Positions 1,059 to 33,857 of a stretch of DNA of 35,330 nucleotides are shown piece by piece (the first letter of the stretch is position 1; each line of letters opens with the position of its first letter). The translations under genes were made by a program, and so were the position numbers. The notes under the pieces were generated by a model that worked only from the letters and a program-made list of their open reading frames with translations, did not search any database and had not been told where the DNA came from. The DNA comes from Candidatus Magasanikiibacteriota bacterium (GTDB lineage Bacteria > Patescibacteriota > Patescibacteriia > Magasanikbacterales > 2-02-FULL-50-9b): assembly GCA_026396555.1 (NCBI GenBank), contig JAPLWO010000061.1, positions 1 through 35,330 on the forward strand, in the 5' to 3' direction.

Positions 1059-3194
1059 ATGAAAAAAATTTTCTTTATTACAGCTTTTCTACTCTTATTT
1101 TCTGCAAACACTGCGCACGCATCTTTTTATATTCCATTATTTAACACATGTACAGGACTTGTAACAAGCCCGTGCGACAGTAATCTGAATTGTAGTGAAA
1201 TGGGATTTGGAGGTCTCGGTAGAATTTGTATTCCAAACACAGATTATTCAGCATGCGGAAACTTCGGCGATTGCACAAAAAATACAGGAAGCGGAAATAC
1301 CAAATGTGTCACCGTACAATCGATCAAAACAGGAAGTGAATTAAAATACGACATGACCTGTTTAAACACAGCAACTGCACCACAGGCGTCAAACGCAAAC
1401 TCAGCTGTGTGCGATACTTGTAAAACAAGCGAGCAGTGCGTCAAAGTTTTTGCTGATAAAAATATTGCATATCGCTGCATCGATGTACAGCTCCTCCCCC
1501 CAAAAGTACTCGACATGGGAAATGGAAGTTGTGGACAAAATGCACAATGCGCCGGAGATCAAAGTTGTGTCGAGAATACATTCACCACGAGCGGACTTAC
1601 ATACGTGTGCTACACAAAATCACTAATCGATCTTACCGGTTCATGCAATAACGTTTCGGGTCAATGTGCGTATAAAGGCGGTGGTGCGAATTCCGGAACT
1701 TGCATGAATATTTTGGATAATAACGCAAAAACTCCACATTGTTTAGACTATTCACAATTGCCAAATAGTCCAACTGCACCGACTCAAGTTGTGTGTAAAA
1801 CAAGTGCCGACTGCGCGAAATTTGGAGAAAATCAATATTGTTTACAAAATCCGGCGACCAATAAAGGACAGTGTTTTCCGCAAGCAGCAATTTTTACAGA
1901 CATGAACCAGTTGCCAAAACAACTGTGTGGAACCAACGATTGTACCTGCGGTGCACCAGGCACAACAGGTTGCAACAAAAACATTTCAGACCCTAATGGC
2001 TCAATCTGCCTACCTTATATCGATCAAGCAGGTGTCACCATCTGTGCAAACAACGCAGGAAATGGAGCAATTTTGGGAACTGGTTCAGGAGCTGCATCGG
2101 CAAATTCTACATCAGCTATCACGCCCACCGTTCCAAACCAAACATACACTGCATACGCACCAAAACTTGAAATCAGCATTCCAAATTTAACATTCGTCGA
2201 TAAAATAACTGCCGAAGATTCTTCAGTGGCTGGTTTAAAAAGATTTTCCATCCCATATCTCGCAACGTACATAAATGCAGCGTACAAATATGCAATCGGA
2301 ATGGCGGTGCTCGCCGCCGTTCTCATGATGATGTACGCAGGATTTCGATGGATGAGTTCGTTTGGGAATGAAAAAGCAGTTACGGAAGCAAAGTCACTGC
2401 TTAGTAATGCAGCTCTCGGACTTTTTATGGTTTTCAGCGCCTACACCATTTTATATTTCATTAATCCAAATCTCACTAATCTATCTTCACTGCAAATCTT
2501 GGCACCGAAGCAGGAGGTATTCAACATCGAAGATTTAACGTTCTCAGATGAAGACCATACGAGTCAGGGCACCGAAGAGAATGTGACAGTAACTCCAAGT
2601 GAATATGACAATATGTTTCAGCTGTATGCAACATGTTCAGGCATTAATTGGCAATTAATGAAAGCGGTTGCACAACACGAATCTGGACTTAAAGCAGCGA
2701 TTCACAATCCAAACAGCAGTGCCGTTGGATTGTTCCAAGCAATGGCAGGAAAAGATAACAAGACATGTAAAAATGTTTTAAGAGCTGTCAATCTCGACGC
2801 AAAATGCAACGATCCTGGATTAACTGATCCGACATTAAATACTGCATATGCATCTTTAATTTTCAAAGTATCGGTTGGAAAAATTAATGCGCTTTGTTCT
2901 AGTGCAACGACTGAAGATAAAATTTTTCTCATGTATTTTGCACACAGTAGCGGACCTGGCGCAATGGGTGCAGGTGTGAAACAATACGGATGTAACCCTG
3001 TTTCAAATGGAACTGCATGGCCAGAAAGTGGAACACTCTGGCCTGACGGAACGCCTTATAAACTTTCAGGGAAAAAAGTTTATAACGGTGCATCAAAATC
3101 ATACATCAATAAAATTGTTAAAAAAGCAACCAGCATTGGTGTTACAAATTTTAGCGGACCGAAAAATCCAACCTCCTGTCCATTACACACGTAA
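1059..3194 (+). CDS. Secreted Cys-rich protein with a VirB2/TrbC-like two-TM pilin hairpin and a C-terminal lytic transglycosylase (SLT, VirB1-like) domain
   Basis: Signal peptide MKKIFFITAFLLLFSANTAHA. About 320 aa of Cys-rich sequence. Hydrophobic hairpin YINAAYKYAIGMAVLAAVLMMMYAGFRWMSSFGNEKAVTEAKSLLSNAALGLFMVFSAYTILYFINPNL (about nt 2250-2480). SLT motif AVAQHESGLKAAIHNPNSSAVGLFQ, with the Glu codon at 2679-2681. Starts 2 nt after the dsbA-like stop. Confidence 0.85.
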   Translation: MKKIFFITAFLLLFSANTAHASFYIPLFNTCTGLVTSPCDSNLNCSEMGFGGLGRICIPNTDYSACGNFGDCTKNTGSGNTKCVTVQSIKTGSELKYDMTCLNTATAPQASNANSAVCDTCKTSEQCVKVFADKNIAYRCIDVQLLPPKVLDMGNGSCGQNAQCAGDQSCVENTFTTSGLTYVCYTKSLIDLTGSCNNVSGQCAYKGGGANSGTCMNILDNNAKTPHCLDYSQLPNSPTAPTQVVCKTSADCAKFGENQYCLQNPATNKGQCFPQAAIFTDMNQLPKQLCGTNDCTCGAPGTTGCNKNISDPNGSICLPYIDQAGVTICANNAGNGAILGTGSGAASANSTSAITPTVPNQTYTAYAPKLEISIPNLTFVDKITAEDSSVAGLKRFSIPYLATYINAAYKYAIGMAVLAAVLMMMYAGFRWMSSFGNEKAVTEAKSLLSNAALGLFMVFSAYTILYFINPNLTNLSSLQILAPKQEVFNIEDLTFSDEDHTSQGTEENVTVTPSEYDNMFQLYATCSGINWQLMKAVAQHESGLKAAIHNPNSSAVGLFQAMAGKDNKTCKNVLRAVNLDAKCNDPGLTDPTLNTAYASLIFKVSVGKINALCSSATTEDKIFLMYFAHSSGPGAMGAGVKQYGCNPVSNGTAWPESGTLWPDGTPYKLSGKKVYNGASKSYINKIVKKATSIGVTNFSGPKNPTSCPLHT

Positions 3195-3225
3195 TGGGCG
3201 TCAAATCAAAAAAACTTACGTTCAC

Positions 3226-4770
3226 ATGAAAAAATTTTTTTTCATTTTCGCCGCACTCATTTTCATCCCGACAAACTCAGTGCATGCATCACCTGGAATT
3301 TTAGAGTCCTGTTCAGGTGCGAGCATCTGTGATTCAGGCTTGCACTGTAGCGCAAAAATAACCGGAGCTGATGTCATTAGTTTTGATAAGGGGGTTTTAT
3401 GCTTACCCGAACCTGATTTCGCAGTATGTGGCCAACTTGGTAATTGCAGCAAAAACACAAATGGCGACACGTACTGCGCAACCGTACAAGCACTCAACGA
3501 CATAAGTAAATACGGCATGTCCTGTTTAAACGCGCTTGAAGTGCCACAAGCAAGTAATGCCTCTAATAACTGTACCAGCAATGCCGATTGCAAAATAAAA
3601 GGAACACAGTGTGTAAAAATCGCATCATGGACAACGGACGGCCTCGATCAACTGACCAGCGTCACACGCTGCGTTGACTTAAATAAAATACCACCAGCTG
3701 TCGTAGACCAATCATTAATTCCAGCCGCCACGGCCGGTCAAACTTTTTCACAATTTGCACCACAACTTGAAGTCTCAATTCCCGGTTTAAAATTCGACAA
3801 CCAAATCACAGCCAAAGCAACTTCAGGAACTGAGATGCGAATTTATTCAGTCCCTTATATTGCATCCTACATAAATGCAATTTATAAATATGCAATTGGC
3901 ATGGCGGTGATTATTGCAACCATCATGATTATGTTTGCCGGTTTTCTCTGGATGACATCGTTGGGTAATGCAAAAACTGCAGGCCAATCAAAACATATGA
4001 TTGGAAACGCTGCACTTGGATTAGGGCTCGCATTTGGCGCGTACACAATTTTATATATCGTAAATCCAAATTTAGTAAATTTAAATGCCATTAAAATTTT
4101 AGCACCCAAACAAGAAATTTTTTGGGTCGACCAAAGTGGTTTCGACGATGTGACCGATGGCCAAACAGATACAGCGCCTTCAGTAGCAATAACGCCTGGC
4201 CAAATTCCGCCGTTCAAACAATGTAACCCGATATGGAAAGATGTTCCCTATCTTGACAAAAATGGAAATCAGATTACATGTACAAAATATCCGATCGATA
4301 CAATTTGTACAAGCGGTTGCGGCGTCGTATCACTCGCGTCAGTTCTTGTTTATAATGGATACAGCGAAACTCCGGCGACTATAGCAGCGTGGGCTGCGGG
4401 GCTTGGCGCGCATACCTCTTGTACCGGTGGAACAAACGCACAAATGCTGTGCAACAATATTTCAACGAAATTTCCTGATTTAAAATGTACGTCACTTAAT
4501 GGAAAAGATCCTGCAGCGATTGCTGCAATTGTAAAACAAGGACATCCAGTTGATTTTTCATGTCATGCCTGTAGCGGACAAACCGCACAAAATACTCCAC
4601 GAACCTATAAAGCACACTACATGGTGATCACAGGCGTGAGCGCAGATGGACAGACGTTTGACATTTTGGACGGAGGGAGTAGTAATCCCGCGAAGGCAAT
4701 GGTAAAATTGCCGGCAAGTGAATTTACCGCAGGAAATGTGGTGAACGCGTACGTTGTGCAAAAAAAATAA
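3226..4770 (+). CDS. Paralog of the preceding gene: secreted Cys-rich protein with the same pilin-like two-TM hairpin, but a C-terminal papain-like (Peptidase C39-like) domain
   Basis: The tracked ORF begins at 3007, but an in-frame ATG at 3226 gives the signal peptide MKKFFFIFAALIFIPTNSVHA, parallel to the upstream paralog. Hairpin YINAIYKYAIGMAVIIATIMIMFAGFLWMTSLGNAKTAGQSKHMIGNAALGLGLAFGAYTILYIVNPNL (about nt 3852-4085). The C-terminal domain has the pattern Q..W, CGVVSLASVL (Cys codon 4318-4320), GHPV and HYMVITG (His codon 4615-4617). Confidence 0.8.
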   Translation: MKKFFFIFAALIFIPTNSVHASPGILESCSGASICDSGLHCSAKITGADVISFDKGVLCLPEPDFAVCGQLGNCSKNTNGDTYCATVQALNDISKYGMSCLNALEVPQASNASNNCTSNADCKIKGTQCVKIASWTTDGLDQLTSVTRCVDLNKIPPAVVDQSLIPAATAGQTFSQFAPQLEVSIPGLKFDNQITAKATSGTEMRIYSVPYIASYINAIYKYAIGMAVIIATIMIMFAGFLWMTSLGNAKTAGQSKHMIGNAALGLGLAFGAYTILYIVNPNLVNLNAIKILAPKQEIFWVDQSGFDDVTDGQTDTAPSVAITPGQIPPFKQCNPIWKDVPYLDKNGNQITCTKYPIDTICTSGCGVVSLASVLVYNGYSETPATIAAWAAGLGAHTSCTGGTNAQMLCNNISTKFPDLKCTSLNGKDPAAIAAIVKQGHPVDFSCHACSGQTAQNTPRTYKAHYMVITGVSADGQTFDILDGGSSNPAKAMVKLPASEFTAGNVVNAYVVQKK

Positions 4771-4783: not shown

Positions 4784-6127
4784 ATGTTTATCTGTTCTGA
4801 ATGCAAGGCGCGTGCACAAAAATGGTCAGGTAAATGTTTGAGCTGCAGCGCGTGGAGCAGTTTAGTTGAAGCTCCGGACGAACCGAAGAAAAAAAATGGA
4901 CGCATCGGCGGTGGATCAAACGCGGCGACCGAAACAATCGCGCTCAAATCAATTTCTTTGACGGGAGATGGCGGGGTGAAACGATTACACACCGGAATCG
5001 CATCGATCGACGAAGCGCTCGGCGGCGGCATAGTCCCCGGCTCTTTGATTTTACTCGCCGGCGAACCAGGTATCGGAAAATCCACACTTGTCATGCAAAT
5101 TGCAATCGCGGCGGGCGGCGTTTTATATATTTCAGGCGAAGAATCTGCACAGCAAGTTGGGATGCGATTAAAACGACTCGACACAAAAAATACCGGCGAC
5201 GTACAATTTATTGGTACAACAGATTACGAAACTGCGCACAACGCAATTAAATCGAGCCGACCACGCCTCGCGATCGTTGATTCGATTCAGACCATGCGCC
5301 ACCCCGATGTTCCGAGCGAACCGGGCAATGTTGCGCAAATCCGTGCGGTTGCAAATTCATTGATGGAGCTCGCGAACCAATCCGGCGTCCCAATTATTAT
5401 TATTGGCCACGTTACCAAGGATGGATCTGTCGCGGGTCCAAAAACATTAGAACATCTGGTCGACGTCGTGATCGCGATCGAAGGTGAGCGTTCGGATCGT
5501 TTGCGCTTTTTGCGCTGTTTTAAAAATCGTTTCGGCCCGACCGACGAAGTTGCGGTTTTAGAAATGCTTGAAACTGGTTTGCAGCCCGTCGCAGATCCGT
5601 CGGGATTATTACTCGAAGAGCGATCACTCCCTGTTCCTGGTTCTGTGGTTACCTGTTTGATGGATGGAAATCGTCCGATCTTGGTTGAAATTCAAGCGCT
5701 CACCACGCGTACAACATTCGGTTTTCCACAACGTCGCGCACAAGGTGTTGATAACGCGCGATTACAAATTTTACTCGCAGTGTTAGGTCGCCGCATGGGT
5801 TTGCCCGTCGACCAATTCGATGTATTCGTAAATGTAGTAGGCGGTTTATCAGCCGACGAACCAGCTGCGGATTTAGCAATTTGCATGGCAATCGCATCAT
5901 CGCTCGCAGATAAAACAATTCCGCAAACTGTTATTGCGTTTGGTGAAGTTGGTTTGTCGGGTGAAATTCGCCGTGTGAAAAATATGGATAAGCGTTTGAA
6001 AGAAGCAGAGCGCCAAGGATTTAAATTCGCGCTTGTTCCAGCTGCGAAAAATTTTCCAACGACAAAAACAATGAAGCTCGCGCCAATTGGCGATATTAAA
6101 TCTGTGCTTGAAAAAATTGAGAAATAA
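4784..6127 (+). CDS. radA: DNA repair/recombination protein RadA (Sms)
   Basis: N-terminal zinc ribbon CSECKARAQKWSGKCLSCSAW, Walker A GEPGIGKST, the RadA-specific KNRFG motif, and a Lon-protease-like C-terminal domain. Confidence 0.95.
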   Translation: MFICSECKARAQKWSGKCLSCSAWSSLVEAPDEPKKKNGRIGGGSNAATETIALKSISLTGDGGVKRLHTGIASIDEALGGGIVPGSLILLAGEPGIGKSTLVMQIAIAAGGVLYISGEESAQQVGMRLKRLDTKNTGDVQFIGTTDYETAHNAIKSSRPRLAIVDSIQTMRHPDVPSEPGNVAQIRAVANSLMELANQSGVPIIIIGHVTKDGSVAGPKTLEHLVDVVIAIEGERSDRLRFLRCFKNRFGPTDEVAVLEMLETGLQPVADPSGLLLEERSLPVPGSVVTCLMDGNRPILVEIQALTTRTTFGFPQRRAQGVDNARLQILLAVLGRRMGLPVDQFDVFVNVVGGLSADEPAADLAICMAIASSLADKTIPQTVIAFGEVGLSGEIRRVKNMDKRLKEAERQGFKFALVPAAKNFPTTKTMKLAPIGDIKSVLEKIEK

Positions 6128-6207: not shown

Positions 6208-6648
6208 TTATTCAGAATGCCTCCGAGGCCCCAGTGAAAGCTGGGGCCGTTTGTTTTTCCACAAAATATCAGTGACACGCTGTTTAATTATTGCCAGTTG
6301 TGATGGTGGCACAGCGCCGACTTTTCTCCGCAACCGTTTGCAATCAAACATACGAAATTGCATGAGCAAAGCCGTGACTTCCCGCTCTTTTACAACTAAA
6401 GGAAACGAATAAAAACCATTCTTTTGAGAGCTCGTGAGCGGTACACCCCAAAAATAGCCACGTGTTAATCTAAGCATCACCAAAACTGGCCGCTCGAAAT
6501 TATTATTCTTTCCATCTTCTTCTACCCCAACGTTCACCCCAACCGAACAAAACCAAATATCACCATCTTGAACAAAACTTTTCCATTCACGCTTATTAAT
6601 ATCTTGTTTTAAAGTATTCCAAGAATCAAAATCTTTTTCAAAGCTCAT
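6208..6648 (-). CDS. PemK/MazF-family endoribonuclease toxin; no adjacent antitoxin ORF
   Basis: Aligns by eye to E. coli MazF. GDIWFCSVGVNVGVEEDGKNNNFERPVLVM matches GDLIWVDFDPTKGSEQAGHRPAVVLS. GVPLTSSQK matches CVPCTTQSK. VGAVPPSQLAIIKQRV matches GTVAPEELQLIKAKI. It carries extra N-terminal and C-terminal tails of about 17-25 aa. Confidence 0.8.
   Translation of the reverse strand: MSFEKDFDSWNTLKQDINKREWKSFVQDGDIWFCSVGVNVGVEEDGKNNNFERPVLVMLRLTRGYFWGVPLTSSQKNGFYSFPLVVKEREVTALLMQFRMFDCKRLRRKVGAVPPSQLAIIKQRVTDILWKNKRPQLSLGPRRHSE
6227..6258 (+). terminator. Rho-independent terminator, for the radA operon and/or the short transcript from the 6158 promoter
   Basis: GGCCCCAG (6227-6234), a 6-nt loop, CTGGGGCC (6241-6248), then GTTTGTTTTT. 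A U-run is present only on the + strand. It lies inside the 3' end of the minus-strand toxin ORF. Confidence 0.6.
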
Positions 6649-6724
6649 ATTTTTTAATCACCCATTTTACCGTCGCACACAGTTTAAAAAATGTCAACGT
6701 TTTTCGTGTGATTAACATGTGAAT

Positions 6725-6772
6725 AAAAAAATCCGACCATCTGCTCGCACGGTTTGCGAAACAAATGGCCGG
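6725..6772 (-). terminator. Rho-independent terminator of the DapD-like gene
   Basis: On the minus-strand RNA, CCGGCCAUUUG pairs with CAGAUGGUCGG (including G-U pairs) around an inner UCGCA/UGCGA stem, followed by UUUUUUU (+ strand A-run 6725-6731). The G-U pairs form only in the minus orientation. Confidence 0.6.
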
Positions 6773-6806
6773 TGTTAACCCAGAAGCGACAATTTACAAC
6801 AACAAC

Positions 6807-8033
6807 TTAGGCCGGGAGCAGCGGTCTAATAACTCCCTGGTCGCCAAACAAATTGCGCGCAGTGTTCTTACGCGCATCATCCGCGAGCAATTCGATGCGC
6901 TCAAGATTTCGATCAGTCTGCACAACCTCGATGCCGCCACCCATCGAATCAGTGCGGAACGTGACACCGCTCACGCCTGACAGTCGACGCGCAGGAACCC
7001 ACAATCGGAGCCCGGCGTGTTTGACGCACACCTTTGATCCCGCCGTCACCGCACAATTCGCGCCCACAATGCACGCATCGCCGAGCGAAATGCCGAGCAT
7101 CGAGTTGATCTCGAGCAAACCATGATCGCCGACGCGAATCGGATCCTTGTTGCCGCCGGAAATCGTGCCGATGATCGACGCGCCGCCACCGACATGTGTT
7201 CCAACACCGATGAACGCGCTCGAACTGATGCGCCCCTCAACCATATTGTCACCCGCACAACCTGCGTTGAAATTTACACCCGAGGCACCAGGCATAACCG
7301 TCGTGCCTTTGCCGAGATACGCGCCGAGCCGAACTTTCGCCGCATCGATGACTCGAATTCCGTCCTTCGCCGCGTTGATGCGATGAATATAATACGGAAA
7401 TTTGTCGTCGCCGATCGGATTGAACGGTTTGCCGCCGAACGCCGCATCAAACAGACGGTCGTCGACTTGCTCCGGATCAATGGGCGTGCTGCCTTGCCAC
7501 GCAACCGTCGGCAGCACACCGAAAATCCCGTCGAGATTCAGCGTATTCGGCTCGAAATGCCGTCCGCTCAAACCGTACAACCGCAACGTCGCATCTTCAA
7601 CTGTCTGACACGGAACTTGATCGTACAGCGCTGTGAACACCGGCTTTCCCATACTGTTCAACAACGCATGATGCGCTGCCTTGATCGCCAGGATGTTCCC
7701 GTGCCGCTTGCCATCGTTGTTGAACACGCCGAACATGTGCGCTGCAAGATCGATTTGCTCCACAGTCGGTTCCACATTCACCACACCAGACACTTCGTCG
7801 AGCCCGAGAGCGCTGTACAGAATCGCCAGCGCGTTCAGATTTTGACCATGACCGTTGACTTGCGGAAAATGAGCAGACGCGAGAATCGACGTTCGACCCC
7901 CAGTGTGAACTTGCCCACCAAGCCCCCAAAGGAGCGGCAGACGAAAATGCGGCTGATCGCGAATCCGAGTGCCCAGTGCCTCGAATTCCGCAACCGTTGT
8001 TGGAAGTGTTTCTGTCCTGAGATTCACACGCAT
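6807..8033 (-). CDS. Left-handed beta-helix acyltransferase, long-form DapD-like (tetrahydrodipicolinate N-succinyltransferase family)
   Basis: Hexapeptide-repeat core VRLGAYLGKGTTVMPGASGVNFNAGCAGDNMVEGRISSSAFIGVGTHVGGGASIIGTISGG, preceded by LDGIFGVLPTVAW. Both match, from memory, the Pseudomonas-type DapD. SD-like AAGGAG lies upstream of the ATG. The gene is markedly GC-rich relative to its flanks. Confidence 0.7.
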   Translation of the reverse strand: MRVNLRTETLPTTVAEFEALGTRIRDQPHFRLPLLWGLGGQVHTGGRTSILASAHFPQVNGHGQNLNALAILYSALGLDEVSGVVNVEPTVEQIDLAAHMFGVFNNDGKRHGNILAIKAAHHALLNSMGKPVFTALYDQVPCQTVEDATLRLYGLSGRHFEPNTLNLDGIFGVLPTVAWQGSTPIDPEQVDDRLFDAAFGGKPFNPIGDDKFPYYIHRINAAKDGIRVIDAAKVRLGAYLGKGTTVMPGASGVNFNAGCAGDNMVEGRISSSAFIGVGTHVGGGASIIGTISGGNKDPIRVGDHGLLEINSMLGISLGDACIVGANCAVTAGSKVCVKHAGLRLWVPARRLSGVSGVTFRTDSMGGGIEVVQTDRNLERIELLADDARKNTARNLFGDQGVIRPLLPA

Positions 8034-8139
8034 GGCGTGCTCCTTTTTTTGTTATGGACACAAAATCCGATGCCGTCGGACGCGGTTACGGGCAGTTTAT
8101 GGGTTTAGGCTTAAAAAGTCAATCTACGGCTTACGCACA

Positions 8140-8568
8140 TTATTTCAATGTAATCAAAATCGCTCCGCCGACCATGACCGCTGCACCGAGTGCAGTTTTC
8201 CACGTAAATGATTCGCCCAAAAATAAAACCGCCAAAATCACGACGAAAACTAAGCTCATACGATCAATCGCAGAAACTTTAACTGGATCGCCTAATTTTA
8301 ATGCTAAAAAATAGCAGAGCCACGACAGCGCGCCCGCAAGTCCGGCCAAAAATAAAAAGAACCACTCACGTCCAGAAAAGCTTCCCCATTTCACGCCGCG
8401 AAATGTACCAAACATAAATCCTGCGACCAGCAAAACGCCGGACATAATAAATGAGCGGACGGTTGTTGCGAGCGTAGAACTCATGTCTTGAATTCCAATT
8501 TTTCCAAAAATCGCGACCAATGCAGCGAAGATTGCGGAACCAAACGAAAATAATAACCAGGTTGGCAT
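8140..8568 (-). CDS. Small EamA/DMT-superfamily membrane transporter (single EamA domain)
   Basis: Four to five TM helices with an EamA-like C-terminus: DPVKVSAIDRMSLVFVVILAVLFLGESFTWKTALGAAVMVGGAILI. Start set at the internal ATG at 8568 (MPTWLLF...), which sits just downstream of an extended -10-like TGCTATACT. The tracked ORF runs to 8622. Confidence 0.75.
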   Translation of the reverse strand: MPTWLLFSFGSAIFAALVAIFGKIGIQDMSSTLATTVRSFIMSGVLLVAGFMFGTFRGVKWGSFSGREWFFLFLAGLAGALSWLCYFLALKLGDPVKVSAIDRMSLVFVVILAVLFLGESFTWKTALGAAVMVGGAILITLK

Positions 8569-8669
8569 ATGCAAACAGTATAGCATTGAGCCACGAAAAT
8601 AAAAAAACCTCCGCACCGACAACGTTCGTCATCGATTTAGAGGTACCACACCAATCTGCTCGCTTGAAG

Positions 8670-9176
8670 TTACGGCGCGTAGAGACGTTCCTGACTAGCG
8701 ATGCCACCAATGCACAAAGGCAACAAAGCGCTTCCCGAATTCACGTCGCACCCGATCTGTTCGATCGTTTGGTCTTTCGGTTTGTCGACATTGTAAACTT
8801 GTACCGTGCAATCGAAATTACCAACTGGATTGGCGTACCGCACGTCCAAATACGGATTACCCTTCAGCTTCATCACTGCAAACTTGTGGCCGATGGCGTG
8901 TCCAGAGCGTGCCGCATGCTCGTCAATTCCCTTCTTGTACACGTCGCAGGCGTGCTCGTGTCCCTCGATGAGCAGCGTTAGGTGACCGAAACGACCAGGC
9001 CAACCCACATCTTCGGTAGTATCCATTCCAATCCACTGGAGCGGAACGTGCGTCAACTGCGCCGACGCGGCGACCGGAGCGCTTTCATGCGACGAGAACA
9101 AGGCGTACATCCCACCAAGCAAAATCGCACCGAAAAGCACTTTCCTGAACCAGTGCGAGGGGTTTTTGAGCGACAT
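8670..9176 (-). CDS. Hypothetical signal-anchored/secreted protein (His- and Cys-containing)
   Basis: Start set at the ATG at 9176 (MSLKNPSHWF...), which is preceded by AGGAGG. N-terminal hydrophobic segment VLFGAILLGGMYALF. GC-rich like its neighbours. No family recognised. Confidence 0.6.
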   Translation of the reverse strand: MSLKNPSHWFRKVLFGAILLGGMYALFSSHESAPVAASAQLTHVPLQWIGMDTTEDVGWPGRFGHLTLLIEGHEHACDVYKKGIDEHAARSGHAIGHKFAVMKLKGNPYLDVRYANPVGNFDCTVQVYNVDKPKDQTIEQIGCDVNSGSALLPLCIGGIASQERLYAP

Positions 9177-9273
9177 GAGTCCTCCTGTTTGAGGTTCGTT
9201 CGTGTAGATGCGAAACAACTACGCAGTAGTTCGCGTACCAAACAGTACTATTTTTTCAGCGCTTTGTCAACCC

Positions 9274-11340
9274 CTACTCCTGATGTAAAATTTCTTCAAA
9301 TCGCACGAGCCGCGCGCGCAACTCCGGGCTGTGCGCCAACACTTCTGGTTCATCGAACACTTTTTGTGCACAACGCTTTGCGCGCTCCCAAACTTCGACC
9401 GGCACAGCCAACAATTCCTCGTATTCAAAAAATCCTGATTGCAACGTTCCCCACACATCTCCGCTTCCACGCATTTCCAAATCTTTTTCCGCCAAATCAA
9501 ATCCATCCGAAATTTCTTCCATTAATTTCATGCGTTTTTCAGCAGTCGACAAATCATCGATGTTTTTCGAAATAGGTTTTCGTGACAGCAAAAATGCGTA
9601 AGATTGTTTATCGCTACGACCGACGCGTCCACGAAATTGATGCAGCTGTGCCAAACCAAATCGCTCCGCGCCTTCGATCCACATGATCGTCGCGCCCGGA
9701 ATATCAACACCAACTTCGATGACCGCAGTCGCAACTAAAATATCGAGCTCTCCCGCACGAAACGCATCCATCACTGCCGCGCGATCTTTTGGTTTTAATC
9801 GACCATGCACGAGCCCCACGCGCGCGGTCGGAAATGTTTCTTTCGAAATTTTTTCAAAAACTTCTGTCGCCGATACAACGCCGAGCGAATCCGATGGATC
9901 GATAAGTGGTGTCACGACAAAAACTTGTTCGCCGGCTGTAATATGCTGTCTTAAAAATTGCTCTGCCTTCGAACGCGCCCCCGGCCCCACCACGCGTGTG
10001 ATTACGGGTTTGCGACCTGGCGGCATTTGTTTAATTGAACTGACTGACAGCGTTCCACTCGCCAAGAGCGCGAGAGATCGCGGAATCGGCGTTGCGGTCA
10101 TTGATAAAAAATGTGGCGTATAGCCCGCGCCATTTTTTTCTTTTATTTTTTTACGCTGCCCGACGCCAAATCGATGTTGCTCATCAACGACAACCAATCC
10201 AACCTCATCGAACTTAACTGAATCTTGGATCAGCGCATGCGTGCCGATAATAATCGCTGCACCCGCCGGCGGCGCAACGCGTTTCCCCGACCCAACCATG
10301 AGCACAATCGGCCAACCCAAACCCGCAAACAATTTTTCAAATGTTTTCGCGTGCTGCTCGGCGAGCAACTGCGTTGGCGCCATACACAAAACTTTCGCGC
10401 CCGCGGTCAAAATCGGATGCGCTGCAATCGCCGCGACAACTGTTTTTCCCGAACCCACGTCCCCCTGCAACAATCGATTCATCGGCCGCTCTGTGCCGAC
10501 GTCCTGAATAATAGCCCACACCGATTTTTTCTGATCATCCGTTAACACAAACGGCAACGCCGCAACCGCGGATTTTAATTCATCGACGGAAAATGTAAAT
10601 GCGCGCGATAAACTTGCCGCGTGAAAATCAGCGATCAATCCGGCCTGCAATTCTTGCAAGAGCGCGCGCTCAAATTGAAATCGCTGAAGCGCAGCCGCCA
10701 AATCATCAAAATCTTTTGGAAAATGTGCCGCCTTCATCGCCGTCGCATACGGCGCCGCGCCCGCGATTTTTACCAGCTCTTCCGGCAACCATTCCGAAAT
10801 TGCCGAACCATATTTTTCAAACGCCGCCGCGACTAATGTTCGCAATTGTTTGTGCGACAATCCTTCGGTCAGTGAATAGAGTGGCACGATGCGCGCGCTG
10901 TGCAACGCCTCGGGCTTATTTGTTTTTTCATATTGCGGACTCACCATCTGCAACCCAAATCGATCTTGCTTAACCTCGCCAGTCAAAAAAATTTCCTCGC
11001 CAATCGCGAGCGTTTTAACTAAATATGATTGTTGAAACCACACCACACGAACTGTTCCCGAATCATCGCCGACCAGTCCCTCAATAATCGTCATCCCCAC
11101 ACGTCGCCCCGCGCGCCGTGACCGCAGCTGACGCACACGCACGCGCACCGTGGCGCTATCGCCCGCGACCAACTCCGCGACCGGTGTAATCGCCCGATGA
11201 TCCTCGTACCGAAACGGCAAATGCAAAAAAAGATCCTGAACAGTTTTCACGTCCAGTTTTTCCAAATATTTCGCGATTTTTTCCCCGCAGCCCGGAATGG
11301 TCATGACCGGCTGGGTCAATAAAATGGAGGTGTCTGACAT
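9274..11340 (-). CDS. recG: ATP-dependent DNA helicase RecG
   Basis: Wedge/OB N-terminal region, Walker A GDVGSGKT, DEQHRFG box, and helicase C motifs (QLHQFRGRVGR). Confidence 0.95.
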   Translation of the reverse strand: MSDTSILLTQPVMTIPGCGEKIAKYLEKLDVKTVQDLFLHLPFRYEDHRAITPVAELVAGDSATVRVRVRQLRSRRAGRRVGMTIIEGLVGDDSGTVRVVWFQQSYLVKTLAIGEEIFLTGEVKQDRFGLQMVSPQYEKTNKPEALHSARIVPLYSLTEGLSHKQLRTLVAAAFEKYGSAISEWLPEELVKIAGAAPYATAMKAAHFPKDFDDLAAALQRFQFERALLQELQAGLIADFHAASLSRAFTFSVDELKSAVAALPFVLTDDQKKSVWAIIQDVGTERPMNRLLQGDVGSGKTVVAAIAAHPILTAGAKVLCMAPTQLLAEQHAKTFEKLFAGLGWPIVLMVGSGKRVAPPAGAAIIIGTHALIQDSVKFDEVGLVVVDEQHRFGVGQRKKIKEKNGAGYTPHFLSMTATPIPRSLALLASGTLSVSSIKQMPPGRKPVITRVVGPGARSKAEQFLRQHITAGEQVFVVTPLIDPSDSLGVVSATEVFEKISKETFPTARVGLVHGRLKPKDRAAVMDAFRAGELDILVATAVIEVGVDIPGATIMWIEGAERFGLAQLHQFRGRVGRSDKQSYAFLLSRKPISKNIDDLSTAEKRMKLMEEISDGFDLAEKDLEMRGSGDVWGTLQSGFFEYEELLAVPVEVWERAKRCAQKVFDEPEVLAHSPELRARLVRFEEILHQE

Positions 11341-24127: not shown

Positions 24128-24982
24128 ATGAAGACGACAACGACGATGGCTGCCCTCGTGGCAGTTGCGATGGTTCTGGCTCTCGGCGCGTGCAGCGGTT
24201 GCAGCGCGGTTGCGGGGGGCGGCGATGCGACCAACGACACGATCGGTACGGGCGACGCAGGTTCGGACGACTCCACAGGCGACGCGACCCTCTACGGCGA
24301 CATCGCCGGTCAGGGCGACGCGGTCCACAACGACACGGTCGGTGGGGATGACGGAACGAATTCAGACGCGACGGACGCGGCTACGACGATCAAGATCGGC
24401 GATCCATGCGTTTACGGTGCGCCGAATACGTGCGCTCTGGACGGCAAGTACCTCGTGATCGCTCAATGTAACTCCATTGATGAAACATGGGGTATCAAGG
24501 CGTTCTGCACCGAGTTTGACTCCTGCAAAAACGGCGCGTGCGTCCACAATCCCGCCACTTGTCCGCTTGCAGGCTACCCGGAAACGACGGAGACGCTCGT
24601 GGTCGATGGCATCGAGTACTGCGTTCCGCCGGGCAACAGCATGATCAAGCGCGCGCTCCTGACGATCAGTCAGAGTATGGGTATTCCGCCCAACGGGTCG
24701 TGCAGCGGTCCATTTAACTCTGATCCTGGTAAGTGCACCATCAACTTTGAACTCATGGGTATCGGAAAAACAGGGCTCTTCGTGTTCGAATACACGTTTC
24801 CAAATAAACCCAACGTAGCTTCGCGTATCGTAATCACGGCATGTGATGAAAAAAAACAGCGCTGTGTTGGTCAGCATTACCCAGATGACAATGGCTCGCC
24901 GGGAACTGTGGTCATCGACCTCAATACAAGCACGATTGATTTAGGAGATCTGGGTTTTCTCTATCAGCTGCTCCTCAAGTAG
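24128..24982 (+). CDS. Lipoprotein with an acidic Gly/Asp/Thr-rich linker and a Cys-rich C-terminal domain
   Basis: Strong SD GAGGAGG at 24115-24121. Signal peptide with lipobox LALGAC. Reiterated GDA/GDD units (24220-24385). Ten or more Cys in the C-terminal half. Confidence 0.75.
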   Translation: MKTTTTMAALVAVAMVLALGACSGCSAVAGGGDATNDTIGTGDAGSDDSTGDATLYGDIAGQGDAVHNDTVGGDDGTNSDATDAATTIKIGDPCVYGAPNTCALDGKYLVIAQCNSIDETWGIKAFCTEFDSCKNGACVHNPATCPLAGYPETTETLVVDGIEYCVPPGNSMIKRALLTISQSMGIPPNGSCSGPFNSDPGKCTINFELMGIGKTGLFVFEYTFPNKPNVASRIVITACDEKKQRCVGQHYPDDNGSPGTVVIDLNTSTIDLGDLGFLYQLLLK

Positions 24983-25058: not shown

Positions 25059-28000
25059 ATTCTTTTACAATAATATAGCCCTGGAATGGAGAGGCAGCAT
25101 TTCCATTTTTAGTAAGGTCACATTTTGTGCTATCAGCTGAAGAATCAGCCCAATACCCCACCGCATTTCCATTCGCATCAACACCATTACAAATCCCCCA
25201 ATTATCCATCAGCTGAACTTTTGGTTTAAATGCACAGAATTTCTCGCCAATATTCACAATATTTTGAAGATGAAACTGACTGATTAAAGGCCCTGTTGCT
25301 TCAACAGCGACGCCCGTTGAACTTGCTAAACTTTTTCCACCACAATCAGACGTGTATCTATATGCATGTGCAAATTGAAAGTAACCTTGTTCACACGCAC
25401 CTGCATCATTAATGCCATCTCCGCCCCATGAACCAAACGACCACTTTTTTGCATTAGGTGTTGGAGCACAGCTTCCTGTAACAACACCTGCGGAATTAAC
25501 GCAGTCTTTGTCTGTTGCACAAGTTGTATTGTAATCAACCACGCCCGCAAACGTACACGCAGTCGCCGGTTCCGTTGGAGTCGAACAAATAGGTTTATGG
25601 TTTCTAAATAATCCCTGTTTGGAAACCGCTGCACCCCCCGCATCGCCCCAATCAATTGTCACTCTTTGAATCGGCAAGTGATTGCGATCTGCTGATCCAT
25701 AGAATTTGAGTGTTGCACCCACAGATCCTTGACCTGCCACCACAGCGGTATCACCATTTTTTCCATTAATGGTCATGTCATTTTTTCGTGCAACGCGGCA
25801 AGTTCCACTTTGTACGCCCGTGCAAGAATCAGCATCAAGCGCATACACTGTTGGAGGCGCTGATATACCTGTTGCAGTTGTGTCCATAGTTAACCCTGGT
25901 GTATTTTCAGCCGATCCACTATACGCATAAAACCTAGCAAATAATTGATGGAGCGCACTTACGCCTGTAGTAAACGAGATTTTCGCTGCAGCATTTCCAT
26001 TCTCAGCACCCAAACAAAGTCCTGGACCATATTCGCAACTGTAAGCTCGTGCACCAACTGATGGAATATCAACCCTTTCTTTCCCAACATAAACAAGATC
26101 AAAAGGCGTTTGCTGCGCCGTAATAACAGATCCAAAATATTGTGATGCAAACGGAATAAATGCGTCAGATCCTTGAGCTGGCAATATAATTCCATTTTCA
26201 TTAAGCGCCAATCCCATTTCGTGATTTGTATTTTTATTCGGTGCTTGCCACAAATTATTTGTCTGCGCAGCATTTTGACCGTTTAAATCCGTTTGAACAG
26301 CCTCTGTACAACGATCAGTTAAATTAATCTTGAATTTCCAGCCAGCTTTTATCGGATTTGTTCCACCAAAAATAGCAGTTCCATCGCAAGACCCTGCAAC
26401 GAGCTCTGGAGCACTAACCAAACCACTCTTTATAATCAAATTAAGTTCGTAAACACGCTCATTGCCTCTAAATGCCATGCCCGCAGACCCAGCGCCCAAA
26501 TCAGTACAATCACCACCAGACGGACCCATTGATTTTTGAATAAAGTCAGTTCCGTTTAGACCTACAAAATCATGTATTAACATTCCATTATAGAACAGCG
26601 CAGACTGGAATGGACTATTTTGATAATTATGATTAACGATTCTCAAAAACCACACCTGATTTGCATATGGCGGGGCTTGCGGATTTCCGCCCATATCAAA
26701 ATTCGACAACAAAGTTTCAATTTCATCGTTATCAACAATTTCAGTGTGCTTTATAACCCCTGTCACTGCTTGTGCCGCAGGTTCATCAATACCATTTAAG
26801 CTCGCCGCTTGCGCAGTATTTTGCTCGCCACGAGAGCAAGAAAAATATTTCTTAACATCCACATCACCATTTCCTCCAAAATAATTATTACCTACACGCA
26901 CTGCTTTACTCAACGTCTTAAGTACATCAGATTGAATGCCAGACAATGCTGACGGATCAAGAAAATCAAAATATTGGTTTGATCCAGCATCTTTTGGTTC
27001 ACGAACCAAGCAATCACCCGTAACGCTTCCCGCAAGTGGCTCTGTTTTTTTTGTTTCATCTACCCAACCGCCATTAACATAAGATCGGATAACACCGTCA
27101 TCCTTAATAATCATCTTATATCCTTGTGGAAAAAATGAATTTTCTGCCGTCGCTTCAATTTCAATTGAATCAATATCAGAGCTATGGGTATCTACAGGTA
27201 ATTGAGCCGCTCCCAACTCTGTCGAGTAATTCACCGGAGCATCAGCAAGAACACTGTACTTTAATTCAGGAAGTGCGTATGAAAATGAAAGTTTACCCGC
27301 AGCATCCGCTTTACCCTTTCCACTGGTTGCCAAACAATACATACGGCCCTGGCCGAGCGGACCAACACTAAATCCTGCACTCGAATACTGATTATATAAA
27401 TCTGTGCTTCCCACATCAATCGGCAGCCACGTCTGACATGCACGTTCATTATTGTTACCATTTAAATGCGTTCGAAAATCTTGCTCAAGACAATATCCTT
27501 CCCAACCCATCACCTTCGTCTCCTTGGTTTTGAACTGACACGTTCCATCTTCTGGCGAATAATGATAGCTCGCATCGCTGCCAACAGCCGTCGCGTCTGT
27601 CGTTGCGCCCGCCGTAATATCCTTAATCTTTAATACACGCTCATCAATACAATCAAAATTACTTGAACATGAAAGCCCTTTCTTAGAAACTGCCAAATTA
27701 GGTTTTGCCACCTGCCCCTCTTTATCGCCGGCAACATACCAACCGCCATCACACACACCAGGTTTAATTGGTGAATTTGCCGTGTCATAATAATGAGTCG
27801 TGTTTCCTTGACCATATACAACTTTCGTATAACTACACTCACAAGAACCATTTGGAACACTCGCAGGATCAAGATCGCTAAAGCCCTGAATCTTTAAAAA
27901 ATCACTAAACGAAGTCCATGTATTCTTACCCGAAGTTGAACCGCCCGTATATTTCAACACCACGGAACGATAGGGCGCACAAATATTAACGCGTTCAAAT

Positions 28001-31000
28001 CCAGGCACAGTGGATTCAGGCGCACCAAACGAAAGTTTGCCTGAACGAATTCCCACTTCTTGTGGAAATGGCGAATCCTGTTCTGGATATCCCCGACAGC
28101 TTGATTCCACAAAACCCGTTGACGTTAGCGCATTTGCAGCAATATCTGTTCTAAATCCATCGAGTGGATACCAACATTTTGATTTTTGACAAATACCACC
28201 TGACCCGATTCCACTTCCGAAACTTGACACGATCATGTCGCCTGCTTCTTTTGAATTAAAGACATCGGCGATACAGAATTTGCCATCATGAGATAGCTGC
28301 GTGCAACCAGCGAAACTCGTTTGTGAATACCATTTATACTTTGTCGCAACAAATCCAGCACCCACCACTAATTTTCCCTGCGTTCCATCCGGGCTAAACC
28401 ACCCAATCGCATCAGGCTGAAATTTATTCCACAATGAATATCCGCTATACTCATTTCCATACCAACCAATGTTTCGGTCCACGTAATTATTCGTGCTCAG
28501 CGGCATCGCATTCGTAATGTCTTCAGTTGTCGGAACTGTATGACTCTTCGTCACCCAGTTCGCACACTGACCAATCGTGTTTGCATCTGTAGACGATTTA
28601 TCACACACACCCAAATCCGTACAAACCTGTTTGTACTTTTGCGTTGCTGGATCAAATTCAGAAATCGAGCTTTGACATGCAAGCCACTGATCACACGTGC
28701 GATCAGGCTGAACTTTTACAATCGTATTTGCATCCGCAAAACCTGAACAAATCTTCTTTAAATTATTGAAATTCGTTGCAAGTTGCGTCTGAACTGAATT
28801 GCTTAAACAATTCCCCGCAATCGGCCCACACCAGCCGCTTCCTGAATTCTGACATGCTGCATTATATTTTGTTAATTGTGTATCACAATCAGTCGCGGTA
28901 AATAATCCGATTGAATTTGCTTCCTTACAAACACCGTAATAATCCGTAGCCGGGAGCGCAGTTGTGTCTGCAACTGGAGTCACCAAACCACCATCTGTTC
29001 GAATGTCAGCAGCTGCGACTTGTGCATAGCTGAGCATCGCTGGACAGTCAGGATCAATCGTCGGATCTGATTTACAATATGACAACATGGTCGCCTTATC
29101 GCGCGCAGACTTCGATGTATCATCAAGTGCAACGCAGCCTGCTTTTAACCCGACCTGTCCACCACAAGATGTTGTATCAAGACGACTATTCTTCAAGAAA
29201 TAATATGAGCGTCCGCCTTTAACACCTTCAAGCTTATCCGCATGATCAATAAATTCAGTACACTGATCATACGTTGGAGTACACAAACCAACCACGCCTG
29301 TATACGCAGCATCCTGATTTTTATAAATTCCATAATAATTTCCACCAGAAACAAAACTCGCATAACACGGTTGATCTGTTCCCGACTTAAACCAACCAGA
29401 ATACGTCACACCTGATTTATCTACCCCGTCGCGATATTCGCATTGTTTATCTGCGGCTGGATATTTAAAGAAGCGCTGCTGTTGATCACTCGTCGTAAAT
29501 GTCTGGCACCATTCTTCTTCCTGTTTACATGATGTCGCAGAATAATTGTCAGGATTATTTATTCTAAACGTTGTTTCTAACGCACCTTTTGTAACAATGC
29601 CAAGTGCACTACATCCTTTTTTATCCGCAGGACATGATGCTGCGCTATTTGCAACAACATACACGAATTTATCAGCAGGAACAATTTTACTTACCGCACC
29701 AAACGAAACAGTAAGCGGCGTGACCTGCGCAGTGTTTTGAGTGTTAACAAACTGTTTACAACCTGCGACTTCAGCACGACATAGCCCCGTAAACCCAGTC
29801 AAATATACTTCTGTTGCACCAGAAGTAGACTGTGGTGTGTACTGATGACAATTTAATGCAGGGCCTGGAATGCTGTCATTTGGCGTTGGATCACATGTCA
29901 GTGGCGTTTTCCATGAGTTTTTTACCACGTACACAACGTCCGCTTGTTCTTTTACGACGATGTTATCGATAAAAATATTTGGTGCATTTCCAACAGGTTG
30001 AAAAATTAAGTTTGCCGCACCATCGCTCCACGGATTTACTGCAGTACTCACTTCAAAACGACGCCATTCTGGACTTACGGTCACTGCATCGGCATTTAAT
30101 TGAACTGTGTTTGGTGTTTGTGATGAGCTAAAAAATGAAACATTAACGCCTCCGGTTCCTTTTGCCCAAAATACAATATCATAAGTTTTACCTTTCAAAA
30201 CCGAAACCGAATGGTGCGCATTTGCATCGACAATTTTCAACACAGTATCACCCACTGTGATACCTTCATTTGAAATCGTGCCACCCAACCACCCATCAAT
30301 ACCAACAAACGATTCGTTCATGACAATTTTTGGACTGAGCGCTGCTGCGCCATTAAACGCGCGACAACCAGAATCTGCCTTCTTACAGCTCTGAGAACCG
30401 CTTGGTAAAATTCCATATTCACATGCACCCGTTGTCGCATCAAACGTTCCATGGCTCGCAACACAATTATTCTGATCTGACGCTAATTTACGGAATTGCG
30501 TACAGCTTGCAGATGCGATGATTGTTTTTGATAACAAACGATAACTTGCAATACCATTTTTATCAAACAATTCACGGCAATCCGAATTAAATGCTGGATT
30601 TGGCTGTCCGTTCAAAATACGGCCTTCATAAATTGTTTTGCTGCACGCAGCATTAAACGAAGCGAGCTCAGTCGAATCTACATAATCATAATGCGGCGTT
30701 GTATCTGCATCAACCTGCAAATCATGTTGGTGTAATTGATAGCCTGTTTTATCAGAACCTTCCCATGAGTAAAACAAGCCGTGATTATTTCCATCGTTGG
30801 TAATACATTTTTGAATATTTGCAAAATATTTTGTATCCCCACCACCTTTTTCTGTTGAATCAATATTTGTATATGTATCGCAGCCCACAACATCTTGAGA
30901 ACATTGTTGTGATGACGCTGGAATAAACGCTGCTGACGAAGATTGAAGCGGCTCTGTTTGTGTGGGCGCTTGATAATACGAAGCGTATCCCACACACTCG

Positions 31001-33153: not shown

Positions 33154-33158
33154 ACTGA

Positions 33159-33857
33159 TTATTGTGCGGGTTGAGCAGCAGCCTGATCTGTCTGAGCTTG
33201 TTTCAATAACGCAATCAACTCGTCATCCGTCATCGCGGTCACCTGTTCTTTCGACATGCCATTTGCAATTAACGCATCTCGAATTTGTTGCGGCGTAATT
33301 GAGTTTGCTGCGTTAAATACAGCTTGCGCGTTTGCGTCCACACCTGCGGCTGGCGCCGTTGACGTTGTATTCGCGATATTTTGCAATGTTTGAACTCCTT
33401 GAACTTGTGTGATCGTCTGCTCTCCTTGTTTTGATCCGCCGGGAGCTGACGATGACGCCGCTTGCGCGGTCAATGTATCAAAAAAACAATCTTTTCCTTC
33501 TGGACATGTCGGACTCGTGCCACGACGAACTTCTTCGCCATCTGGAATTCCGTCTGAATCTGTATCGCGCATGTATGGACTGCTGTGATAGACGTACAGT
33601 TCGTCATAGTCAGATAAACCGTCGCCGTCTATGTCCTTTTTTTTCAACGCATCCATTTCATTTTGCGCCTGCTGTTCTGGACTAAGCGCCGCATCCGCTG
33701 CGAGCTTTGCTTTTACACCGTAAGAAAAAATATTTGATCTGAACTGAACACCACTCACAACAATAAGTAGCAGCGTCACTAAAACAAGTAAGCCCAGCCC
33801 GATGCGCTGACCTTTATCGAGCGTTGTTGGTTGTTCAAATTCCTGATTTTCCATCAC
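33159..33857 (-). CDS. N-terminally anchored protein with thrombospondin type-3-like calcium-binding repeats
   Basis: TM helix IGLGLLVLVTLLLIVVSGV. DIDGDGLSDYDELYVY and DTDSDGIPDGEE (DxDxDGxxDxxE) at about nt 33530-33645. Its stop lies 5 nt before the giant-gene start. Confidence 0.75.
   Translation of the reverse strand: MMENQEFEQPTTLDKGQRIGLGLLVLVTLLLIVVSGVQFRSNIFSYGVKAKLAADAALSPEQQAQNEMDALKKKDIDGDGLSDYDELYVYHSSPYMRDTDSDGIPDGEEVRRGTSPTCPEGKDCFFDTLTAQAASSSAPGGSKQGEQTITQVQGVQTLQNIANTTSTAPAAGVDANAQAVFNAANSITPQQIRDALIANGMSKEQVTAMTDDELIALLKQAQTDQAAAQPAQ

Follow-up and report, generated by a model that had tools for sequence, protein, structure and literature searches.

The stretch analysed here, hereafter the window, is a 35,330-bp contig of a metagenome-assembled genome (MAG) listed in NCBI under Candidatus Magasanikbacteria, a lineage that we take to belong to the GTDB class ABY1, together with Falkow- and Uhrbacteria. 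It encodes a type IV secretion system (T4SS) operon, two proteins in which a VirB2-like pilin hairpin is joined to a wall hydrolase, a giant Cys-rich protein with a small partner, and the helicases RadA and RecG (Table 1). The 26 open reading frames (ORFs) of the window were scanned against Pfam, and most of them also against NCBIfam; 80 VirB4 relatives were fetched with 10-kb flanks, and the ORFs of these loci were searched iteratively using every window protein. Throughout, counts give the loci with a gene over the loci with sufficient flank, among ABY1 loci. By its VirB4, the window is nearest to MAGs of Magasanik-, Falkow- and Uhrbacteria. A first-pass annotation had listed the component classes of an apparatus that would attach to a host, open its wall and import DNA or nucleotides, and every one of these classes is present, including an oxidative-folding enzyme, a DsbA-like thioredoxin whose gene ends just ahead of nt 1059, where that annotation began.

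The two fusion genes follow the dsbA-like gene in a same-strand string of DsbA, pilin-hydrolase, pilin-hydrolase and RadA. DsbA, the first of them, has a CESC motif as its CxxC and a single transmembrane (TM) segment at residues 7-25, and is membrane-anchored. The pilin-SLT fusion consists of a signal peptide, a Cys-rich ectodomain (36 Cys), a VirB2-like two-helix hairpin at residues 402-468 (nt 2262-2462), the conserved junction LQILAPKQEVF, which reaches residue 487 (nt 2519), and an SLT domain with an HES motif at residues 520-641 (nt 2616-2981); two TM segments are predicted. AlphaFold2 (AF2) places the hairpin helices at residues 399-432 and 438-468 with pLDDT values of 70-80. The model of the full protein is poor (pLDDT 51, from an alignment without SLT homologues), and its best Foldseek match, the EGF-like protein Pvs25, reaches an E-value of only 0.17. 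The second fusion has a signal peptide, a shorter ectodomain (21 Cys), a hairpin at residues 215-278 (nt 3868-4059) and a papain-like C39_2 domain at residues 339-480 (nt 4240-4665). Its hairpin, under the PF18895 gathering threshold (GA), is 54% identical to the first (E 3e-42). The hairpin loop is basic in both proteins; by the positive-inside rule, both the N- and the C-termini are thus expected outside the cell. SLT (ES motif) and C39_2 (GCG motif) lie C-terminal to the second TM segment and are predicted to be extracytoplasmic enzymes of the VirB1-type class. The glycosidase and peptidase versions on a VirB2-like anchor that had been proposed from the letters are therefore both present behind hairpins, in an architecture that turns out to be widespread and modular.

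This modularity is seen most clearly in the homologues, whose ectodomain and hairpin are 36-48% identical to those of the window and whose C-termini differ (M15_4, C39_2, Amidase_2, VanY/M15, SLT). Column conservation runs at 0.4-0.85 up to LQILAPKQEVF (residue 487) and at about 0.2 beyond. Searched with the hairpin, 1.84 billion representatives yielded 19,643 relatives at E <= 1e-3, of which 2,123 reached E <= 1e-10. Among 102 top representatives, PF18895 was found in 96 and TrbC/VirB2 (PF04956) in 7, with the fused families VanY (11), C39_2 (10), M15 (9), SLT (9), Amidase_2 (6), M15_4 (3), NlpC/P60 (3), 3D (3) and glucosaminidase (2), so that at least eight peptidoglycan-hydrolase families are fused to the hairpin. 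Two of ten clusters among the fusion relatives were named by taxon, and both are ABY1. No stand-alone pilin was found near ABY1 virB4 genes: the hairpin ORFs of the window and the ABY1 loci are all long (179-796 aa, the shortest being cut by locus ends or frame breaks), and all 30 of those in ABY1 loci lie in the T4SS neighbourhood. On sequence evidence, the VirB2-like hairpin proteins constitute a modular family with a conserved Cys-rich ectodomain and hairpin and a swappable C-terminal peptidoglycan hydrolase. Cognate immunity genes were not seen downstream of the window fusions; the next genes, after gaps of 31 and 13 nt, are the paralogue and radA.

Other architectures also occur. One relative (L036, 19086-20867) combines an N-terminal GDSL lipase-like domain, a hairpin and SLT in a single protein, and tandem variants carry up to eight hairpin domains (P0124, P0125 and P0186 among other architectures). 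Both window hairpins weakly match (E ~0.01-0.04) the NCBIfam models of the Mycoplasma integrative and conjugative element (ICE) pilin-like family Mbov_0395 and of the TM protein Mbov_0396, a hint at the possible presence of such hairpins in further monoderm MPF_FATA systems.

Seven genes, for a VirB6-like protein, a 609-aa protein, PrgI/VirB3, TrsD, VirB4, a VirB8/PrgL-like protein and ComFC, form a tight operon for an inner-membrane T4SS of the monoderm type, derived from MPF_FATA. They recur with great regularity: TrsD-like in 79/79 loci, the 146-aa family in 78/78, PrgI in 77/77, the 609-aa protein in 67/67 and the VirB6-like protein in 53/59. VirB4 is of the monoderm conjugative type (CD1110 family, NF045971 above cut-off), but the window protein lacks the classical N-terminal domain. 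It covers profile positions 172-730 of the CD1110-family model (NF045971), and the adjacent 241-aa ORF, annotated by NCBI as 'TraC family protein', aligns with NF045975 positions 99-220 and CD1110 positions 2-106 (TrsD and VirB4-N matches under the curated cut-offs). Since the 659-aa ATPase misses the N-region of the model and the separate 241-aa ORF matches it, VirB4 is split; judged by these profile alignments, the 241-aa protein is TrsD/TraC-like and equals a separately encoded VirB4 N-terminal domain. Of the VirB3/VirB4/VirB6 core of the first-pass annotation, VirB3 and VirB4 have profile matches above threshold, and one of the two orphans that it had added to the core is explained, leaving the 609-aa protein as the only true orphan. 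This protein has no match in Pfam, NCBIfam or the PDB, where a profile search gave low-complexity matches only, and all 19 of its homologues are without a protein name. A relaxase and a type IV coupling protein (T4CP) were not found among the 26 ORFs, in keeping with the earlier observation that conjugation-specific genes are absent.

Two of the assignments are less direct. The 1045-aa polytopic protein has ~8 TM segments within residues 40-405, followed by a hydrophilic tail of ~640 aa, and no profile match in Pfam or NCBIfam; it is therefore called VirB6-like from its topology, position and conservation. Its listed TTG start is separated by 2 nt from that of the divergent APH gene, and the real start is probably Met22 (~nt 22893), just ahead of the first TM segment. 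Members of the 146-aa family are ~200 aa long when intact and combine a TM segment with a ~120-aa domain. Its top match in a profile search of PDB sequences was PrgL (7aed), the VirB8-like protein of pCF10, at an E-value of only 0.37; with this match taken as suggestive only, the ORF is probably VirB8/PrgL-like, consistent with the literature.

ComFC occurs in 60 of 68 loci (88%), always on the T4SS strand and at a median of 624 nt after VirB4, which puts it directly behind the 146-aa gene. The window ORF has a phosphoribosyltransferase-fold C-terminal domain (TIGR00201, 68 bits; cut-off 233) and keeps the PRPP-type phosphoribosyltransferase motif MIFDDVVTTGST (FDDVVTTGST). Its 5' end is damaged. 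Relatives of 216-246 aa carry C.GC...WC..CE, and the window ORF, read from GTG 14400, retains WCSVCE only, so that the first half of the N-terminal four-cysteine zinc finger is lost; further upstream the reading frame stays open, without offering a start codon. The cause is a deletion of ~270 nt at 14412/14411, with CTTTTTC microhomology, which truncates the VirB8-like gene at its 3' end (146 aa) and makes the sequence jump into comFC, removing half of the zinc finger and the native start codon. An independent assembly (L087, SRR20698640) shows 100% identity to the window along the 1811 nt leading to 14412 and then continues into an intact 202-aa VirB8-like allele; the deletion may be a strain variant or an assembly artefact. 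ComFC had been described as the last gene of the operon: it does belong to the operon, but it is 5'-truncated here, and a non-conserved 228-aa ORF follows 59 nt on, on the same strand.

The giant protein has a signal peptide, a helical N-terminus, 96 Cys and a conserved C-terminus, and dozens of its cysteines are invariant across 26-53 homologues. We collected 83 homologues of 1833-3673 aa (most of 2,200-3,700), ~40% of them with PF02018 (CBM_4_9). A CBM4/9/16/22-like jelly-roll lies at residues ~945-1075 (nt 29929-30321); the CBM_4_9 score of the window protein, 21.2 bits, is sub-threshold (GA 25.9), against 27-33 bits for homologues at that position. AF2 modelled residues 560-1130 with pLDDT 70-93, and Foldseek matched this model to CBM16, CBM4 and CBM22 (TM-score ~0.65, E ~1e-6); the N-terminal 358 residues, for which a VirB5-like helical docking domain was considered, stayed below pLDDT 50. 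Model and profiles together establish a CBM jelly-roll fold, from which carbohydrate binding is predicted. Residues 1-1950 and 2400-2698 are common to most homologues, and a hypervariable segment between them (residues ~1950-2400, nt 25954-27306) aligns in only 8-13 of 82. One homologue (P0068) has an F5/8-type-C lectin domain at residues 1775-1897, upstream of where the hypervariable segment would fall.

Directly ahead of the giant gene, across a 5-nt gap, lies the gene of a TSP3 (Ca-binding) repeat protein with a TM segment at residues 19-37. A small TM partner ORF precedes the giant in 7/7 contexts (the window and six others), with faint TSP3 repeats in three others. The giant gene itself is found within 10 kb upstream in 20 of 54 ABY1 loci, always on the strand of the T4SS genes. 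Of the candidate adhesin of 2698 aa that was first proposed, the predicted glycan-binding module agrees with the CBM fold and the Ca-binding partner with the TSP3 match of 34.6 bits. A literature search on giant Cys-rich Patescibacterial proteins found nothing relevant.

Comparison with relatives changes the picture of the locus as a whole. Their gene order is TSP3 protein, giant, VirB6-like, 609-aa protein, PrgI, TrsD, VirB4, VirB8-like and ComFC, continued by a 213-aa TM protein, RecG and then, convergently, RadA, the pilin-hydrolases and DsbA. The 213-aa TM protein is present in 19 of 40 loci with full flank, usually between ComFC and RecG; RecG is found in 18/40, RadA in 17/40 and a hairpin fusion in 15/40, each within 10 kb. 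The string DsbA, fusion, fusion, RadA, convergent with RecG, is repeated on independent contigs (L081, L082). On the other side, Sua5 and KsgA directly precede the genes for the TSP3 protein and the giant in distantly related ABY1 lineages (L083, L084, L085), and the order Sua5, KsgA, small TM/TSP3, giant, VirB6-like, X, PrgI, TraC-like, VirB4 runs along one strand, including on a 931-kb contig and in Kerfeldbacteria, where the giant directly abuts the VirB6-like gene. The loci are thus co-located more often than chance would give. The first-pass view that they belong together is borne out, and its description of them as dispersed is not, since relatives show one contiguous neighbourhood that lineage-specific insertions interrupt here. 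An inverted arrangement (VirB4, 146-aa gene, DsbA, RadA) was considered as independent evidence of linkage and rejected, because a single inversion of an adjacent block explains it.

The first insertion (6208-9218), between RadA and RecG, carries genes for a toxin of the PemK/MazF type, an acyltransferase resembling DapD, an EamA transporter and an unassigned protein of 182 aa. The DapD-like gene has 57% GC vs the 41-47% typical elsewhere in the window, and the genes of the insertion lack counterparts in related loci, except for EamA in L004 and L068. The closest relative (L001) is without this insertion, which may be a horizontal acquisition. The second insertion, on the opposite strand, separates the giant from the VirB6-like gene and comprises two genes: that of an APH-type kinase, shared with L001 and L005, and that of a putative lipoprotein rich in Cys, Asp and Gly (14 Cys), which lies in a region of 55% GC and is without a homologue in any locus.

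Table 1. Features of the 35,330-bp window, with positions in nt and the matches on which each assignment draws.
Feature	Position	Strand	Evidence
DsbA-like thioredoxin	346-1056	+	PF13462 E 3e-21, PF01323 E 9e-10
Pilin-SLT fusion, 711 aa	1059-3194	+	PF18895 33.6 bits (GA 26.6); SLT PF01464 E 1.4e-8
Pilin-C39-like fusion, 514 aa	3226-4770	+	PF13529 (Peptidase_C39_2) E 1.3e-11; PF18895 18 bits, under GA
RadA/Sms recombination helicase	4784-6127	+	TIGR00416 488 bits, cut-off 403
PemK, GC-rich DapD-like, EamA, 182-aa unknown	6208-9218	-	Pfam scan
RecG helicase	9274-11340	-	RecG_wedge E 2e-30; NF008168 716.6 bits vs cut-off 718 (just under)
tRNA-Arg (GCG)	~11933-12009		
213-aa TM protein	12037-12678	-	weak DUF5673 match only
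tRNA-Ser (GCT)	~12786-12876		
228-aa secreted protein, non-conserved	13055-13741	-	no family
ComF family (ComFC/GntX)	13801-14400	-	TIGR00201 E 7e-19, GntX E 6e-19, both under cut-off
146-aa TM protein, NTF2-like domain, probably VirB8/PrgL-like	14375-14815	-	no Pfam/NCBIfam family
VirB4 ATPase, 659 aa	14821-16800	-	NF045971 342.8 bits, cut-off 325; P-loop_TraG E 6e-26
TrsD/TraC-like protein, 241 aa	16802-17527	-	NF045975 E 3e-10, NF041427 E 5e-6
PrgI/VirB3-like, 2 TM segments	17534-17977	-	PF12666 31.7 bits, GA 27
609-aa soluble protein	17980-19809	-	no family
VirB6-like polytopic protein, 1045 aa	19819-22956	-	~8 TM segments
APH-type kinase + Cys/Asp-rich lipoprotein	22959-24982	+	PF01636
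Giant secreted Cys-rich protein, 2698 aa	25057-33153	-	no Pfam family above threshold
TSP3-repeat TM-anchored protein	33159-33857	-	PF18884 34.6 bits, GA 25
KsgA + Sua5	33906-35287	-	PF00398, PF01300

The presence of both helicases, also claimed at first, agrees with these scores: RadA passes its TIGR00416 cut-off, and RecG falls just short of that of NF008168. An Rfam scan of the window returned only the two tRNAs. Promoter-like sites in the window were as numerous as in shuffled sequence and terminator-like sites only ~2 standard deviations more so; operon ends are not defined by them. Two long ORFs are probably spurious, one at 7122-8108 (+), antisense to the DapD-like gene, and one at 11488-11994 (-), overlapping tRNA-Arg.

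Much of the framework for these observations has been published. A Patescibacteria-specific, MPF_FATA-derived T4SS with TrsD, PrgI, VirB6 and PF18895 pilins, lacking relaxases, has been described, with VirB8 homologues almost exclusively in ABY1 (Quinonero-Coronel et al. 2025, PMC12102498). According to the same study, comF, recG and radA are genes that T4SS loci of ABY1 "commonly include", "suggesting a functional coordination"; it puts forward the uptake of DNA or other macromolecules through the T4SS and reports that most VirB2-bearing genomes are without VirB1 and that adhesins were not detected (PMC12102498). The T4SS has elsewhere been named as a candidate nucleotide importer (PMC11665869), the T4SS region of TM7x holds GntX, of the ComF family, and resembles the ptx/ptl locus (PMC7427843), and in Southlakia the T4SS, its pilin array and the adjacent hydrolases are essential, with ComEC, ComF and DprA dispensable (Wang et al. 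2023, PMC10633639). The first-pass annotation had treated the T4SS genes as known and their combination as functionally undescribed; the genes are indeed published, but so are the comF/recG/radA linkage and the idea of import, and the core of that synthesis is already published speculation. Its further statement that the pilin-hydrolase architecture is undescribed agrees with our search: neither wall-cutting enzymes on pilin-like hairpins nor a conserved giant sugar-binding protein was found described in searchable papers. What seems new, then, is the modular pilin-hairpin hydrolase family on the one hand, and on the other the giant Cys-rich family with its CBM jelly-roll, hypervariable segment and constant small TM/TSP3 partner, usually encoded just upstream of the T4SS genes. 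The reported lack of VirB1 in most VirB2-bearing genomes could arise because the hydrolases are fused to the pilin hairpin.

Set beside the published Patescibacteria T4SSs (PMC12102498, PMC10633639), the window is alike in its VirB4, TrsD, PrgI/VirB3, candidate VirB6-like and PF18895 VirB2-like components, its chromosomal setting and its lack of a relaxase and, within ABY1, in the adjoining comF, recG and radA and the nearby KsgA gene. It differs in that its sole VirB2-like genes are long peptidoglycan-hydrolase fusions rather than arrays of short pilins, and in that its cluster, for which PMC12102498 detected no adhesins, has the giant CBM protein and the TSP3 partner among its conserved members. 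The Gram-positive conjugative T4SSs (pCF10 Prg/Pcf, pIP501, ICEBs1, the C. difficile CTn with CD1110) share with the window a CD1110-type VirB4 and a set of PrgI and candidate PrgL-like and VirB6-like proteins, and they have comparable membrane-anchored glycosidase and peptidase hydrolases (PrgK, TraG, CwlT) and large adhesins (PrgB). Unlike them, the window has no relaxase or coupling protein, its VirB4 is split, and it is not on a mobile element; its glycosidase and peptidase sit on two proteins with pilin-like hairpin anchors, as opposed to a single TM segment, and its adhesin candidate is unrelated to PrgB.

We favour, with moderate confidence, the reading that this is an ABY1 chromosomal T4SS supercluster whose exported hydrolases and giant protein act at host contact and serve macromolecule transfer. 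DsbA would oxidise the invariant cysteines of the exported proteins, and the giant and its Ca-binding partner would bind a host surface glycan, with the hypervariable segment of the giant setting host specificity. The VirB4/VirB3/VirB6 engine would treat the hairpin proteins like pilins, either docking them at the channel or extruding them as a short decorated fibre, so that the swappable hydrolases would act as VirB1 equivalents and cut the own wall, the host wall or both at the contact site. The channel would then move macromolecules. The lack of both relaxase and coupling protein and the presence of ComFC in the operon would favour host DNA as the cargo, taken up as single strands that RadA and RecG would recombine or that would be salvaged as a source of nucleotides; as a T4SS cargo, host DNA is speculative and without strong support. 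The original hypothesis of attachment, wall opening and import of DNA or nucleotides thus stands as far as the linkage of the loci and the reality of the hydrolase architecture are concerned, and is unsupported as to cargo and direction.

Import by such a machine has a precedent in the ComB system of Helicobacter pylori (with ComEC and ComFC), likewise a T4SS without relaxase or VirD4 and with a ComF-family and recombination link. ComB, however, is a diderm system of MPF_T type with VirB7-10, whereas the window system is monoderm and of different ancestry, its link to ComFC being one of gene order only. The crenarchaeal Ced system imports DNA with the VirB4/HerA-like CedB; Ced-specific components are not present in the window, and the CedB model is matched only weakly (45.8 bits vs a cut-off of 700).

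Several points weigh against the supercluster reading. The Southlakia T4SS (class Saccharimonadia) is essential and ComF is not, so the core role of the T4SS needs no ComF. KsgA and Sua5, which are unrelated to secretion, are as syntenic as the helicases; synteny alone does not tie RadA and RecG to the T4SS, and their proximity may be frozen gene order. One giant and its partner lack a T4SS within 9 kb. VirB6 and VirB8 are assigned from topology, position and an insignificant PrgL match, the ComFC and VirB8-like genes are damaged in the window contig, and a pilin with large domains at either end may be unable to polymerise. Finally, we know of no cultured member of ABY1 and of no experiment in any ABY1 organism.

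Some of the same points suggest a different division of labour, which we consider possible though unlikely: the T4SS would be an exporter or surface-assembly machine. Its polymorphic effectors would be the Sec-dependent pilin-hydrolases, possibly joined by the giant, deployed to lyse or perforate the host wall and so release nutrients, and ComFC, RadA and RecG would be syntenic bystanders acting together with ComEC elsewhere in the genome. Signal peptides are indeed present on the pilin fusions and the giant, the hydrolase C-termini vary as in polymorphic effectors, and KsgA and Sua5, as housekeeping genes, are equally syntenic. The dispensability of ComF beside an essential T4SS in Southlakia (PMC10633639), together with the Ptl-like logic of Sec-dependent substrates, would favour export or surface assembly; a resemblance to the ptx/ptl locus has been noted (PMC7427843), and Bordetella Ptl is a T4CP-less T4SS acting on Sec-exported substrates, although Ptl-specific components are not present in the window. 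The resemblance to polymorphic toxin and effector systems extends to a conserved N-terminal module, a sharp junction and swapped C-terminal enzymatic domains, but in the window family only cell-wall enzymes occur as variable domains, a T4SS pilin hairpin serves as the delivery module, and nothing resembling an immunity gene follows in the short gaps behind the hydrolase genes. Moreover, ComFC is co-directional with, and directly downstream of, the T4SS genes in the great majority of ABY1 loci, and a ComF-family gene also lies in the T4SS region of TM7x; an accident in two classes is hard to credit.

A bolder form of the supercluster reading can also be envisioned, to which we give little credence: an 'armed' T4SS fibre or contact organelle, extruded by VirB4/VirB6 and guided by the hypervariable, lectin-like giant, in which hairpin subunits carry interchangeable hydrolases (sometimes lipase-like domains) that would drill the host wall, while a ComFC-coupled channel would import host DNA as a nucleotide supply. 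Equally improbable, if not a little more so, is that there is no single machine at all, and that own-wall enzymes on a two-TM anchor, a coat or adhesin, DNA repair genes and a separate T4SS are kept together by the stable order of reduced genomes. Such a scenario would account for the unrelated housekeeping genes in the same synteny, the giant distant from any T4SS, the occurrence of RadA, RecG and pilin fusions within 10 kb in only ~40-45% of loci, and the tolerance of the neighbourhood for lineage-specific insertions. It is harder to reconcile with an anchor homologous to T4SS pilins (PF18895 above GA; TrbC/VirB2 in relatives), with the confinement of every ABY1-locus hairpin ORF to the T4SS neighbourhood, and with a giant and partner that are co-directional with, and adjoin, the VirB6-like gene across deep lineages. 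A decaying ICE rather than a domesticated chromosomal system, as the conjugative CD1110 family of VirB4, the PemK toxin gene and GC-atypical genes, and the two truncated T4SS-operon genes might suggest, is most improbable and was rejected, given that the scanned ORFs of the window showed neither a relaxase nor a T4CP or integrase, that an att-like context was likewise not found there, that the same chromosomal housekeeping context is conserved across many ABY1 genera, that an intact VirB8-like allele exists in the same population, and that PMC12102498 likewise concludes against a mobile element.

Taken together, these observations bear on the means by which Patescibacteria draw building blocks from their hosts, for which the T4SS is the leading candidate. 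Across a whole class, the VirB2-like genes themselves appear to be modular wall hydrolases, which speaks to the published lack of VirB1 and of adhesins and offers enzyme domains that can be expressed, and the conserved giant with its hypervariable segment is a candidate determinant of host specificity.

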